Positions 1 through 6,800 of a DNA stretch of 64,000 nt are shown in pieces. The position numbers were made by a program, and so were the translations under genes. The notes under the pieces were generated by a model. It was not told the DNA's origin. It worked only from the letters and a program-made list of their open reading frames with translations, and did not search any database. How positions within the stretch are numbered: position 1 is the first letter of the stretch; each line of letters starts with the position of its first letter. The DNA comes from an uncultured Gemmatimonadales bacterium (GTDB lineage Bacteria; Gemmatimonadota; Gemmatimonadetes; Gemmatimonadales; GWC2-71-9). Location: contig CAWCMH010000001.1 of NCBI GenBank assembly GCA_963796635.1, positions 1,045,769 to 1,109,768 of the forward strand, in the 5' to 3' direction.

Positions 1-276
1 ACTCGACCGACCGCGCCAGCGCAAACGAGTTGGGCGGCACCACGCAGACATCCCCTTTGAACTCGACAAAGCTCTTGTCGTCGAAATGCTTCGGGTCGAC
101 GATGGCGGACAGCACGTTGGTGAAGATGCGGAACTCGTCTGCCACCCGCATGTCGTAGCCGTACGACGAGACGCCGTAGGAAATCGCGCCGGCCCGGACC
201 TGGCCGTCGACGAAGGGTTCGATCATGCCATGGTCGCGCACCATCGGCGGATCCAGCGATCGGATTTGATGGACAT
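1..276 (-). pseudogene. dcd: dCTP deaminase, 5' part (3' end lies off-window); one frameshift as sequenced
   Basis: Minus-strand ATG at 276 gives [11 protein letters not shown]. The frame changes near 245; restoring one base in cgccgatgg gives ..RRMVRDHG. It then reads [71 protein letters not shown], the conserved Dcd N-terminal region. Confidence 0.8.
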
Positions 277-416
277 GGGGGGCAAGATAAGCGAGCAGGC
301 GAGGCGCAAGGCGGGCGACGCGAGCCACCACGCGTGGCTGTCGAGTTCGTTGGTCGAGGCCGCGCGACCCCGATTCCCGACGGCGCCGCGTCGCACCATC
401 GGCCCTGCACGGTTTG

Positions 417-445
417 TTGAAATCGCCCCGGGGTTCCGGTACATT
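417..445 (+). promoter_or_regulatory. Candidate sigma70-type promoter of the nuo operon
   Basis: TTGAAA (417-422), 17 nt spacer, TACATT (440-445), 41 nt upstream of the nuoA ATG. By-eye match only. Confidence 0.35.
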
Positions 446-455
446 CCGGGCGGGT

Positions 456-2135: not shown

Positions 2136-3423
2136 CACCGCGCACGATCGACGTCGAATTCGCGGACGCCGACGCTCGACGCCAGCGGCCAGGTGCGCAC
2201 CGTGCCGCTCGGCGTGTCGCGCCGGCCCAGCGAGTCGGTCAACGACGATTTCGGCGCCGAGCACATGCTGGTCAACATCGGACCGCAGCATCCTGCCACG
2301 CACGGCGTGCTGCGGCTGGTGGTCGAGCTGGAGGGCGAATCGGTCAAGCGGGTGATCCCGCACATCGGCTACCTCCACTCCGGCTTCGAGAAGCTGGGTG
2401 AGTACCGCTTCTACAACCAGATCATTCCGCTCACCGATCGCACCGACTACCTGTCGCCGATGGCGAACAACATCGCGCTGGCGCTCGCGGTCGAGCAGCT
2501 GATGGGCCTCCAGATCACCGAGCGCTGCCGGCTGCTGCGGGTCATCGCCTGCGAAATGAGCCGGATCATCTCGCACCTGGTCTGGGCCGGCACCACCGGC
2601 ATCGACCTCGGGCGCGTACACGCCGTTCCTGTGGATGTTCGAGCAGCGGGAGCGGATCTACAACCTGCAGGAGGCGTGGACCGGGGCGCGGCTGACGACC
2701 TCCGTCGCGCGGGTCGGCGGCATGATGGCCGACGTGCCGGAGCATGGGAGGACGGGCCTGCGCGACTTCGTGCGGACCTTTCCCGGCGACGCTGACCGAA
2801 GTGGACACGATGTTCACCCGCAACGCGATCTGGTGCGGGCGCACCCAGGGTGTCGGCGCCATGAGCGCCGACGAGGCGATCAACTACTCGCTGTCCGGCC
2901 CGATGCTGCGCGCCAGCGGCGTCGACTACGACGTGCGCAAGGACCGGCCGTACCTGGGCTACGATGAGTTCGACTTCGACGTGCCCGATCGGCGAGCACG
3001 GCGACGTCTACGACCGGTACCGCGTGCGCATGGAGGAGATGTTCCAGTCGGCCCGCATCATCGAGCAGGCGCTCGACCGGCTCGAGCCAGGTCCGGTCAA
3101 CGTCGCCGATCCGCGGGTGATCGTTGCCGCCCAAGTCCCGGGCGATGAGCGACATGGAAGCGATGATCTACCACTTCAAGCAGGTGATGGAAGGCATCAA
3201 GGCGCCGGCCGGCGAGGTGTATTTCGGGGTCGAGAACCCCAAGGGCGAGCTGGGCTACTACTTCGTGTCCGACGGCACCGCCAAGCCGGTGCGCTGGCGC
3301 ATCCGTCCGCCCTCGTTCCTCAACCTGGCGGCGTTGCCCAGGCTGTGCGAAGGCGCGCTGCTGTCGGACGTGATCGCGATCAACGCGAGCGTGGACATCG
3401 TGATGGGAGAGATCGACCGGTGA
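2132..3423 (+). pseudogene. nuoD: NADH-quinone oxidoreductase subunit D; five frameshifts as sequenced
   Basis: GTG 2132 overlaps the nuoC stop (GTGA). Conserved blocks lie in successive frames: [24 protein letters not shown]; [16 protein letters not shown]; [15 protein letters not shown]; [18 protein letters not shown]; [27 protein letters not shown]. Frame switches fall near 2169-2170, 2610-2612, 2782-2784, 2984-2986 and 3123-3125. Confidence 0.85.
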
Positions 3424-3922
3424 CGACGCACGACACGGCGGCGTACGCAGCCGGTGTTCACCGGCGCAGTGCTGGCGCAACTGGAATCGCTGTATCCCCG
3501 GTATCCCGACAAGCGGTCGCTGCTGCTGCCGGCGCTCTGGCTGGTGCAGGAGGCGCGCGGCTGGATTGCCGATGGCGCCATCGCCGAGGTGGCCGACACG
3601 CTCGGGATTGACCGCCGCGTACGTGCGGGGCGTGGTGACCTTCTACACCATGTTCCATACCCACCCGGTGGGGCGGCATTTCATCCAGGTCTGCACCACG
3701 TCGCCGTGCGGCATCTGCGGCGCCGAGGAGGTGGCGCGCGCACTGGTGGCACACACCGGCTGCGGCGACCTCGGTGCCACGAGTCCCGACGGTCGCTTCA
3801 CCGTAATCGAGGTCGAATGCCTCGGCGCGTGCGGATTTGCCACGCCGATCCTGGTGGATGACGATTTCATCGAATCGGTGACGCCCGAGCGCGTGCCGGA
3901 CATCCTTGCGCGGTATGCCTGA
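3420..3922 (+). pseudogene. nuoE: NADH-quinone oxidoreductase subunit E; two frameshifts as sequenced
   Basis: GTG 3420 (GTGA overlap). ..[29 protein letters not shown].., then ..TAAYVRGVVTFYTMFHTHPVGRHFIQVCTTSPCGICGAEE..ECLGACGFATPILV. Frame switches near 3451-3454 and at ggg 3604-3606. Confidence 0.85.
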
Positions 3923-5239
3923 TGGGCTACCCGCACCCGATCCACCCGCCGGAGACGCCGGTGCTGTCGCGCTATTTCGGCGACGCCGGCGCCCGCACGT
4001 ACGAGGGCTGGGTGGCCCGCGGCGGCTATACCGCGTTGCGCAAGGCGCTCGGACATGTCGTCCGACGCGATCATCAGCGAAGTGAAGACGTCGGGGCTGC
4101 GCGGGCGCGGCGGCGCGGGCTTCCCGACCGGGCGTCAAGTGGTCGTTCATGCCGAAGGACGACCGCGCAAGCCGCATTACCTCTGCTGCAATGCGGACGA
4201 ATCCGAACCCGGCACGTTCAAGGACCGCGAGATCATGCGGTGGACGCCGCACGCGCTCATCGAGGGGTGTGCCATCGCGCAGCTCGCCATGCATGCCGAG
4301 ACGTGCTACATCTACATCCGCGGCGAGTTCACCGAGCCGTATCACGTGATGCGCGCCGCAGTGGACGAAGCCTACGCCGCGGCGACCCTCGGCGCGAACG
4401 CAATCGGGTCCGGCAAGCGGATCGACATCGTGCTGCATCGGGGGGCGGGCGCGTACATCTGCGGCGAGGAAACCGCGCTGATGAACTCGATCGAGGGACG
4501 ACGCGGCAATCCCCGCATCAAGCCTCCGTTTCCGGCCGTGGCCGGATTGTTCGGCAAACCGACGACGATCAACAACGTCGAGACTCTCGCCGCGGTGCCG
4601 CCGATCATCAATCAGGGCGGCGCGTGGTACGCGAGCCTGTCGCTGTCGAGTCCCAAGAGCACCGGAACCAAGCTCATCTCGGTGTGCGGGCACGTGCAGC
4701 GGCCGGGCGTGTACGAGATCACGATGGGCTACCCGATGCAGGCGTTGATCCATGACATGTGCGGCGGGATGCGGGAGGGACGGACGCTCAAGGCGGTGAT
4801 TCCCGGCGGCTCGTCGGTCCCGATCATGACGCCCGCGGAAGTCGACGGCTGCCCGACCGACTACGAGGGCGTCGTGGCCCGCGGCTCGATGCTGGGTTCC
4901 GGGGGCATGATCGTGATGGACGACTCGACCGACCTGGTCTACCAGATCATGCGGTTGGCCCGCTTCTATGCCCACGAGAGCTGCGCCCAGTGCACCAATT
5001 GCCGGGAAGGCACGGCGTGGACCACACGCATTCTCGAGCGCATGCTGGCCGGGCAGGGCAAGCCGTCGGACCTCGACCTGCTGCTCGACCTGTCGGAGAA
5101 CATGACCGGCAAGACGATCTGCGTGCTGAGCGATTCGTGCGCGGCGCCGGTGGTCAGCGGCATCGAAAAGTTCCGTGCCGATTTCGACGCGTACGTCGGT
5201 GTGACCGCCGCACCGGCACTCGCGGGGTCGGCCGCATGA
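3922..5239 (+). pseudogene. nuoF: NADH-quinone oxidoreductase subunit F; three frameshifts in the first 250 nt as sequenced
   Basis: ATG 3922. ..GLRGRGGAGFPTG / VKWSFMPKDDR / KPHYLCCNADESEPGTFKDREIM..GAGAYICGEETALMNSIEG..ESCAQCTNCREG. Frame switches at gg 4051-4052 and ggg 4130-4132 (extra base) and at 4165-4168 (missing base). Confidence 0.85.
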
Positions 5240-6800
5240 GCGACGAGATGGTGGCGCTGACGATCGACGGCGTGCCCGGTCGAGGTGCCCAAGGGGACCA
5301 TGGTGATCGAGGCGGCCAAGCGCGCCGGCGTGCTGGTGCCGCACTACTGCTACCATCCGTCGCTGCCGTCGCCGGCCGTGTGCCGCATGTGCCTCGTCGA
5401 GATCGAGAAGGCGCCGAAACTGATGCCGGCGTGCGTCACCGCCGTCGGCCGCGGGTCAGGTGGTGCACGTGCACTCGGCCGCGGCACTTGAGGCGCGCAA
5501 GAGTGTGCTCGAATTCCTGCTGATCAATCATCCGCTCGACTGCCCGATCTGCGATCAGGCCGGCGAATGCGAGCTGCAGGACTTCACGTTCCAGGAGGGA
5601 CGCGCAGGCTCACGTTACGCGGAGTATGCCAAGCGCTACTCGCCGGTCGAGGACTTCGGTCCTGACATCCTGTACGTGCCCAACCGGTGCATCCTGTGCA
5701 CCCGCTGCGTCCGCTTCATGGACAGCGTCGCCGGGGACACCGTGCTCGACGTGTTCGATCGCGGCGATCGCGCCTACATCGGCATCGACGCCGATCATCG
5801 GCTCGATCATCCATGGGCGGGAAATGTGGTTGATCTCTGTCCGGTTGGATCGCTGCTCTCGAAGGATTTTCTGCACAAGGCGCGCGCCTGGGATCTCGAC
5901 AAGACCGCGTCGATCTGTCCGGGATGCACCCAGGGCTGCAACATGACGATCGACACCCGGGACAGCGCCGTGGTGCGGTTGCGGCCGCGCGCCAATCTCG
6001 AGGTCAACCGGCATTTCATGTGCGACGCCGGCCGGGCCGATTATCGCTGGATGAATCGCGGTGATCGCGTCGAGGCGCCGCTGGTTCGCGATGGCGAGCG
6101 CCTCCGCGCGGTGGACTGGGACGTCGCGCTCGACCGGCTGAGCACGCTGGTGCACGAGGCCGAGGGCAACATCGTCCTGCTGGCCGGTGGCCGTGCGTCG
6201 TGCGAGTCGCTGGGCTGGGTGATGCGGCTGATCGGTGCGCCGCGCGCCGCGGCGATGCAGGTGCCGACTGGTCCGGAGGCCCCGATCGGGACGATCCCCG
6301 GCTTGGCGCGGCGGGCCGAGCGCGCCGCGAACCTGATGGGCGCGCGACGGCTTGGCGTCGACACCGAGTGGACCACGGCCGTCGGTGCCCTGGCGCAGGC
6401 GGCGCTGGTGATTACGCTGGACGTGACACTCGACGATGCCGCCGCCGCGGCCGTCGAAGGCGTGGCGCATCACGCGCATCTCGGCACGGTGGTCGACGAG
6501 CGGTGGGCCACCGCCGACGCCGTGCTGCCGGTCACAACTATGGCCGAAGAGCAGGGCGTCTATGTCAACGTTGACCAGCGGGCGCAACGCTATCTGCCGG
6601 CGCGCCCGGCGCCCGGAATGGCGCGGCCAGCGTGGTGGGTCGCGTCGCAGGCGTGGGGACGCGATCGCACCGGCATCCGGCCGCCCGCGACCGCAGCCGA
6701 CGCATTTGCCGAGTTGGCAGCGTTCGATGGCCTCACGTATCGCGATCTCGGCCTGACGGGCCGTCGTCTCGCGACCGCGTCGACCGGGGCCGCGCGATGA
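5236..6800 (+). pseudogene. nuoG: NADH-quinone oxidoreductase subunit G (short form); two frameshifts in the first 230 nt as sequenced
   Basis: ATG 5236 (ATGA overlap). MSDEMVALTIDGVP / VEVPKGTMVIEAAKRAGVLVPHYCYHPSLPSPAVCRMCLVEI / QVVHVHS..INHPLDCPICDQAGECELQD..NRCILCTRCVRF. Frame switches at ccc 5275-5277 and ggg 5453-5455. Confidence 0.85.

Follow-up and report, generated by a model that had tools for sequence, protein, structure and literature searches.

The dcd-nuo locus and its frame breaks

The window analysed here is a stretch of 64,000 nucleotides (nt) from an uncultured Gemmatimonadales bacterium (assembly GCA_963796635.1, contig CAWCMH010000001.1, positions 1,045,769 to 1,109,768). 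Its G+C content is 66-70%, and the nearest matches of its NuoF, NuoG and NuoD proteins are found in Gemmatimonadales metagenome-assembled genomes (MAGs) and soil metagenome contigs. The window begins with the dCTP deaminase gene dcd on the minus strand, followed on the plus strand by nuoA-N, the 14 complex I subunit genes in canonical order (assigned by family-level profile matches for the repaired NuoA-G, and by orthology and synteny with the relative L163, introduced below, for NuoH-N). As recorded, dcd and nuoA-G are broken by 16 frame-breaking insertions or deletions (indels) within positions 244-5456. These events are clustered, are private to this sequence and are unaccompanied by decay at the protein level.

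The closest relative of the window is a 192-kb JGI soil contig (3300037258 Ga0376646_0000317), of which two pieces were used: L163, which spans sdhAB, dcd and nuoA-N, and L081, which spans pgm, sucCD, ndk and the fab cluster. Both pieces are syntenic with the window (85.8% nt identity to L163 across 1-13430 in a global DNA alignment; 82% nt identity to L081 across 15171-26640). Frame breaks were detected in three ways: with a protein-to-DNA aligner that permits frame changes, using the proteins of another relative (L004) as queries; by scoring each possible single-base deletion within +/-30 nt of a site on profiles built from relatives only; and by the global DNA alignment against L163. Genes were repaired by removing the extra bases, adding the one missing base and translating the result. 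Because neighbouring repairs differ by 1-3 bits in profile score, each event is placed to ~5-10 nt only. All three methods agree on the 16 events, and they bear out the genes, directions and coordinates (to within ~10 nt) listed in an earlier sequence-only reading of this DNA, apart from the details given below. The events are distributed as one each in dcd, the nuoA/nuoB junction, nuoB and nuoC, five in nuoD, two in nuoE, three in nuoF and two in nuoG. The alignment with L004 proteins places frame changes in dcd (minus strand, ~243), the nuoB N-terminus, nuoC, nuoD (five), nuoE (two), nuoF (three) and nuoG (two).

The 5' part of dcd (2-276, minus strand) is cut by the window start and has its frame broken at codon 12. 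It aligns with residues 21-112 of the L004 Dcd protein. Event 1 (244-246, minus strand) is a single nucleotide missing relative to L163 (window caccatc-ggcgg, L163 caccatctggcgg; the 24 nt on either side are identical) and is the sole clear missing base of the set. The repaired fragment matches TIGR02274, and the dcd gene of the closest relative is intact (186 aa). Two segments of the intergenic region between dcd and nuoA (277-486), one of 73 nt (337-409) and one of 6 nt, have no counterpart in L163, and the region also differs from L163 by 1 nt at three places (283, 444 and 486); these differences may be genuine divergence or additional errors. A G6 run (277-282) is located just upstream of the dcd start.

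The remaining events lie in plus-strand genes. In nuoA (486-852), the conserved stop (...EWD*) is lost: TGA 850-852 is shifted by one base relative to the reading frame, so that the ORF (open reading frame) extends to 1496. The start of nuoB (842-1461), ATG 842, is out of frame with the conserved body of the gene, and the distance from this ATG to the conserved SPNW codons at 895 is 53 nt. Both the displaced nuoA stop and this spacing must be accounted for, and therefore two separate extra bases are needed here. Event 2 (844-850, at ~847) is one extra nucleotide in the overlap of the nuoA stop and nuoB start (window aatgggatgtgag, L163 aatggg-cgtgag). Its repair gives a NuoA ending in EW[D/V/E]* and a NuoB beginning with MG[L/V]SPLPV, matching relatives. 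Event 3 (860-894) is one extra nucleotide in the N-terminal region of nuoB (window cgaaacccatctcg, L163 cgaaa-cgatctcg). The sequence-only reading had put it at 898-900, but it belongs upstream of SPNW, which it leaves intact, with the top profile score at ccc 889-891. Repaired NuoA is 121 aa in length and matches NF005922 (1-119/119, 106 bits; cut-off 155). The repaired product of nuoC (1493-2135) matches TIGR01961. Event 4 (1759-1767, at ~1762) is one extra nucleotide in this gene, with the best repairs (1759-1763) falling outside runs; the motif xR[HK]xDLRV is preserved only if the repair is made at 1759-1763.

Five frame breaks, each one extra nucleotide, are found in nuoD (2132-3423). Event 5 (2159-2165, at ~2161) appears as gaattcgcggacg in the window and as gaact-gcggacg in L163. 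Events 6 (2609-2613, at ~2610) and 8 (2983-2988, at ~2983) are ggg and ccc where the relative has gg and cc, respectively. Event 7 (2777-2789) is ambiguous in placement over cctttcccggcga and falls at 2789 in the L163 alignment. For event 9 (3120-3126), the best repairs are a3120 or g3123, outside runs. Repaired NuoD is 428 aa, as in nearly all relatives, and matches TIGR01962 (2-386/386, 520.6 bits; cut-off 459). In nuoE (3420-3922), one extra nucleotide outside runs forms event 10 (3446-3450, at ~3448; window tacgcagccggtg, L163 tacg-aacccgtg), the repair of which gives AYEPVFTG, the L163 sequence. Event 11 (3603-3607, at ~3604) is ggg in place of the relative's gg. Repaired NuoE matches TIGR01958 (3-147/148, 148 bits; cut-off 142.4).

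The three frame breaks of nuoF (3922-5239) occur within its first 82 codons. Event 12 (4048-4055, at 4048-4054) and event 13 (4128-4134, at ~4130; ggg, relative gg) are single extra nucleotides. Event 14 (4163-4169; 4168 in the L163 alignment) can be repaired either as two extra nucleotides or as one missing nucleotide, the choice of the sequence-only reading. Two extra bases fit better (888.4 versus 883.1 bits), with a 2-nt gap relative to L163; the family has no extra residue at this position, and removal of both bases gives a NuoF of 437 aa, the L163 length. Repaired NuoF matches TIGR01959 (10-410/410, 598.6 bits; cut-off 559). The nuoG gene (5236-6800) has two frame breaks in its first 75 codons and is intact thereafter. 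Event 15 (5274-5279, at ~5275) is ccc in place of the relative's cc, and event 16 (5446-5456, at 5447-5456), also one extra nucleotide, is the last of the cluster. The nuoG product is a short form (520 aa) that after repair matches only the N-terminal part of TIGR01973 (1-328 of 606), below cut-off. Relatives have NuoG proteins of the same short length (516-526 aa), and so the short form is a lineage feature rather than damage.

The single event outside the cluster is in fabH (22473-23464, plus strand), which loses its frame 23 codons short of the stop and upstream of the codons for the conserved SFGAG loop. As recorded, the FabH profile match ends at 298/322; after repair, the match to NF006829 reaches 321/322 (5-321, 404.8 bits; cut-off 249). 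The event (23392-23400) is best described as two extra nucleotides in cgaGCCCGGGc (410.3 bits, with a 2-nt gap at 23394 relative to L081) instead of one missing c (404.8 bits), which revises the direction proposed in the sequence-only reading. Most likely it is a solitary error of the type seen in the cluster.

Clustering and sequence context of the events

The ORF listing is split into many short overlapping frames over the first 5.5 kb, and long ORFs appear from ~5460 onwards. With one event in the remaining 58.5 kb, the binomial probability of finding at least 16 of 17 events in 5500 of 64000 positions is 1.4e-16. The cluster crosses gene and strand limits: it takes in dcd on the minus strand and, on the plus strand, the genes from nuoA to nuoG, where it stops partway through the gene at codon 75. 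The indels thus track a physical stretch of DNA and not a gene or operon. Their density in this stretch is 0.31%, and no substitution errors are detectable. At the rate seen within the cluster, a further 2 kb free of events would have a probability of 0.002, so the affected stretch ends between ~5456 and ~7000. Because dcd runs off the left edge of the window, the stretch probably continues upstream.

The sequence-only reading had named fabH as the only other frameshifted gene, and this stands both in the alignments with L163 and L081 and in a reference-free check of the regions that have no close reference. Relative to L163, all other gaps in coding sequence across 1-13430 are multiples of three, and no frame-breaking gap occurs in 5457-13430, which covers the next 8 kb of the nuo operon; a 1-nt difference at 8547 is located between nuoI and nuoJ. 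Relative to L081, the only frame-breaking difference in 15171-26640 is that of fabH, none is found in 31134-35356, and a 1-nt gap at 18283 is intergenic. In 26.6-31.1 kb and 35.4-64 kb, for which there is no close reference, no further break was found by the reference-free check of GC3 phase and ORFs or by Pfam coverage. This check (Viterbi segmentation of GC3 phase, with ORFs compared to coding signal) flags 11 ORFs in the first 5.5 kb. Beyond this point it flags the fabH/fabD junction, four coding signals that end early (three of which were checked and explained) and several trivial start offsets of a few codons. Pfam domain coverage is complete in those ORFs of the rest of the window that have matches.

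Some apparent irregularities outside the cluster were examined and rejected. A compensated double frameshift in a Ser/Thr kinase gene (31017-31039) is an alignment artefact in a low-complexity linker (score 369 with frameshifts, 367 without). A seemingly truncated kinase (60618-61280), in which the Pfam match ends at 191/263, has all of the DFG, APE and C-terminal Arg motifs in frame and a natural end, with no frameshift. The ORF at 15863-18250 has a noncoding-looking tail, but the whole ORF aligns with the relative's protein. That at 35386-36750 ends similarly, its tail consisting of a transmembrane helix followed by a Pro/Ala-rich segment.

Fifteen of the 16 cluster events are extra bases (P = 2.6e-4 against a 1:1 ratio), and the DNA around each event aligns cleanly with L163 through a single 1-nt (once 2-nt) gap. 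Six are clean extensions of a G/C run from two to three bases (889-891, 2610-2612, 2984-2986, 3604-3606, 4130-4132 and 5275-5277), and one or two extend a single base to two (e.g. gg 5447-5448). For about six sites, the repair that fits best deletes a base unlike both of its neighbours (847/848, 1759-1763, 2161, 3120 or 3123, 3448 and 4053/4054). Four of these non-run repairs reproduce the L163 protein exactly (ELRTPTLD, RVSLPPKS, AYEPVFTG and MGVSPLPV). Placement outside runs at these sites is suggestive, as the alternatives within runs cost just 1-3.6 bits.

The sequence-only reading had attributed the events to homopolymer length miscalls. This description is apt for the ~6-8 events that extend short G/C runs and fails for the approximately six outside runs. 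Homopolymer length errors fall in homopolymers and become likelier with run length; here the event sites sit in runs of 1-3 nt, and the longest coding homopolymers of the stretch (G6 at 829-834, G6 at 4440-4445 and G5 at 4901-4905) are all in frame. Because these runs, which length-dependent miscalling would strike first, are spared, the term is inaccurate in its usual, length-dependent sense. The pattern is closer to that of stochastic, spurious insertions, which often copy an adjacent G or C, in an under-supported consensus. The motif CCSGG (CCCGG or CCGGG) overlaps four of the 17 sites (2782-2786, 4128-4132, 5275-5279 and 23395-23399) versus 0.72 expected under random placement (P = 0.006), which could reflect a context- or methylation-related consensus problem or merely the presence of G/C runs within the motif. 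This association is not relied on, as it was found post hoc after seven motifs had been tried and run ambiguity widens the intervals.

Conservation of the repaired genes and origin of the frameshifts

After repair, each of the eight genes is a single ORF with no internal stop. Repaired NuoA, NuoB, NuoC, NuoD, NuoE, NuoF, Dcd and FabH match NCBIfam models, in most cases from end to end, and in length the repaired products agree with the genes of the closest relative (121, 205, 166, 437, 413, 168, 187, 98, 657 and 516 aa). The repaired NuoA-G would measure 121, 205, 213, 428, 166, 437 and 520 aa, respectively, and FabH 330 aa. Selection on these proteins was assessed against a comparison set of 160 related loci with ~1,300 complete nuo genes. 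Every repaired protein was aligned with up to 60 orthologues from these loci, and differences were counted at positions where the relatives are unanimous. Repaired NuoA-G keep 736 of 739 such invariant columns, and the other three carry conservative changes (L>V, Y>F and V>I). NuoH-N, used as an intact control, keep 643 of 646. The retention in NuoA-G is indistinguishable from that in NuoH-N and in a typical relative, with many relatives having equal or higher values. For neutral decay that had produced 16 indels, at least 15-50 non-synonymous hits would be expected at invariant codons (P <= 1.6e-4), given a substitution-to-indel ratio of 3-10; that the ratio is at least 3 is an assumption from general knowledge. 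As invariant columns are kept at the NuoH-N level where decay predicts 15-50 hits, there is no sign of relaxed selection on nuoA-G. The genes thus have the disrupted frame of a pseudogene, and the accumulated substitutions, nonsense codons or deletions of one are absent. The remarks of the sequence-only reading that nuoH-N are intact and that the conserved blocks are free of premature stops and substitutions both agree with these counts.

Comparison with related genomes, which the same reading had recommended, indicates that the frameshifts are private. All corresponding genes of L163 are intact, and among the ~1,300 complete nuo genes of the 160 loci, five are split, none of them at the sites found in the window. 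Since the frameshifts are not shared by relatives, conserved programmed frameshifting is ruled out. The split genes, which amount to a background of ~5 per 1,300, are nuoH and nuoL of L018 (12946-14188 and 15641-17606), nuoG of L029 (11267-12794), nuoL of L032 (15445-17410) and nuoF of L126 (8372-9638). L018 and L029 are MAGs with isolate names starting with MFD.

The 16 indels are very probably a local consensus or assembly artefact and not gene decay, as the sequence-only reading had also proposed. This interpretation is supported by the privacy of the frameshifts, the disregard of the cluster for strand and gene limits and the lack of excess change at invariant positions. The scenario that we favour would run as follows. 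The stretch from ~244 to 5456, and probably the sequence upstream of the window, would be poorly supported consensus. This could be the end of a contig, sequence drawn from a single long read or very few of them, or a long-read bridge left unpolished in a hybrid assembly. It would hold ~0.3% residual indel errors, nearly all of them spurious extra bases. The organism's true dcd and nuoA-G would be intact, with the frameshifts existing only in the record.

The frameshifts are truly present in the sequence, and it is conceivable that they are also present in the organism. In this case, a very recent burst of single-base insertions over 5 kb, due to localised error-prone repair or replication or to a mutator lineage, would have inactivated dcd and the electron-input half of complex I (the N- and Q-module genes) before any other decay. 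Complex I loss is known in some bacteria, such as Mycobacterium leprae, in which nuo pseudogenisation during reductive evolution has likewise left several nuo frameshifts, and the strong insertion bias observed here is atypical of the best-known sequencing error profiles. True pseudogenes also accumulate nonsense and missense changes and deletions, and these are common to related strains. The genes studied here instead have a full purifying-selection signal at their 739 invariant codons, no nonsense codons and no larger deletions, and the damage is confined to a 5-kb physical stretch that is not a functional unit: it spans two unrelated transcription units on opposite strands and halts in the middle of nuoG, leaving nuoH-N perfect. 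A mutator would be expected to act genome-wide, yet only one event occurs in the other 58 kb, and no known bacterial mechanism produces a 5-kb patch of +1 insertions. Moreover, one frameshift is sufficient to inactivate the operon, and 15 independent ones without other damage are unexpected. Real inactivation is therefore very unlikely; if true, it would call for a new form of patch-wise insertion mutagenesis, or for expression by recoding on a massive scale.

Recoding by itself, in which programmed ribosomal frameshifting, transcriptional slippage or RNA editing would allow the genes to be expressed in spite of the frameshifts, has one formal point in its favour, namely that the downstream frames are perfectly conserved. 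Continuation of the coding sequence in a shifted frame is also seen in programmed +1/-1 frameshifting (prfB, dnaX) and in the slippage of endosymbionts. Those sites are single and conserved, with a defined slippery motif or long homopolymer, and none of these features is found here. No site is conserved in the 160 related loci, in all of which each protein is read from a single frame. The 16 sites have no slippery motif in common, and transcriptional slippage requires long homopolymers, whereas the event sites have runs of 1-3 nt and the frame is kept across the G6 runs. Fifteen events in one operon would lack precedent, and to our knowledge there is no editing in bacteria that removes extra DNA-encoded bases. 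We regard recoding as extremely improbable. Finally, the errors may have been introduced after assembly, by over-aggressive polishing or gap-filling, a chimeric join of low-quality scaffolds or deliberate noise. The evidence for an artefact applies here equally, and an almost complete restriction to extra bases, some of them unlike both neighbours, could come from processing as readily as from noise in the raw reads. A foreign chimeric piece is disfavoured, since neither composition nor similarity to relatives shows a break at the 5.5-kb boundary. The data do not distinguish alteration after assembly from poorly supported consensus, and we give the former a very slim chance.

Local consensus errors of the kind favoured here have precedents. 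Clustered indel errors in otherwise accurate assemblies are known from short-read-first hybrid and unpolished Flye assemblies (PMC8442456), regions beyond the reach of short-read polishers keep such clusters (PMC8812927, Polypolish), and the resulting gene fragmentation is a recognised problem (PMC12007338, Kastor). As in the window, long-read and hybrid assembly errors are dominated by 1-nt indels with rare substitutions, form local clusters, create apparent pseudogenes and are found by means of related proteins (PMC12007338, PMC8812927, and PMC8442456, Trycycler). The single-read error rate of HiFi sequencing (0.22-0.25%, with very few substitutions; PMC9713900) is close to the 0.31% indel density found here, where no substitution errors are detectable.

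Several points weigh against this interpretation. The residual errors described in the literature mostly concern the length of longer homopolymers, and insertions and deletions are roughly balanced (44% versus 47%, PMC8442456). In this stretch, by contrast, all but one of the 16 events add bases, runs at the event sites span just 1-3 nt, several events lie outside runs and the G5-G6 runs are correct. The 15:1 bias and the spared longest homopolymers are unlike the usual residual errors of ONT, 454 or Ion Torrent sequencing, and the bias also departs from HiFi data, for which insertions and deletions are reported to occur at about the same rate. Weak read support is what we infer as the cause of the events, and not what was observed. 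In addition, no sequence from the same species was found for independent comparison in GTDB genomes, JGI metagenomes, a search of 5.8 billion proteins or exact-protein look-ups. The best matches were NuoF at 83% in GTDB genomes, NuoG at 73% in JGI metagenomes and, in the 5.8-billion-protein search, NuoD at 94% amino acid identity to the closest relative. Exact-protein look-ups of the window NuoH and NuoK gave no match, and an AcpP query reached relatives at 83-87% nt identity only.

The biology of the organism would be unaffected by such errors: its complex I, Dcd and FabH are almost certainly ordinary and intact. Automated annotation of the record will show eight to nine essential genes as fragments or pseudogenes, and estimates of completeness and metabolic potential would drop (e.g. 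"no complex I N-module"). Users of the record are advised to re-polish or mask ~1-5500 and ~23394. The error profile, made up of insertions in short runs, is a small diagnostic clue to how the record was made.

Other loci in the window

The segment at 26640-31130 cannot be aligned with the otherwise syntenic L081. It encodes a Big_1/InlB B-repeat surface protein of 760 aa (26678-28957) and a protein of 432 aa without a Pfam match (28983-30278). As the relative has other genes between fabF and the Ser/Thr kinase gene, this segment is a variable island.

A gene cluster resembling a type VI secretion system (T6SS) is located at 37070-56400, and all of its ORFs are intact. It encodes a DUF4123 chaperone (37070-38245, minus strand), a PAAR protein (37608-38096), OmpA/PG-binding proteins (38188-39483 and 41532-42164), TssB/VipA (42352-42828, weak match), TssC (42825-44171), a VgrG-like Phage_base_V protein (45375-47315), TssG (49033-49944, weak match) and a ClpV-type AAA+ ATPase (51585-54278). 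Because several core components match Pfam weakly or not at all, the cluster may represent a divergent T6SS subtype in Gemmatimonadales.

Four FHA-domain proteins are encoded at 54260-55195 (plus strand), 55179-56369 (minus strand), 59668-60618 (plus strand) and 61152-62462 (minus strand), the first two within the T6SS-like cluster. Adjoining these genes are those for a Sel1-repeat protein (56455-57516) and a minimal Ser/Thr kinase of 220 aa (60618-61280), the latter overlapping a convergent FHA gene by ~130 nt. Together, the FHA, kinase and Sel1 genes (54260-62462) probably form a phospho-threonine signalling module attached to the T6SS-like cluster.

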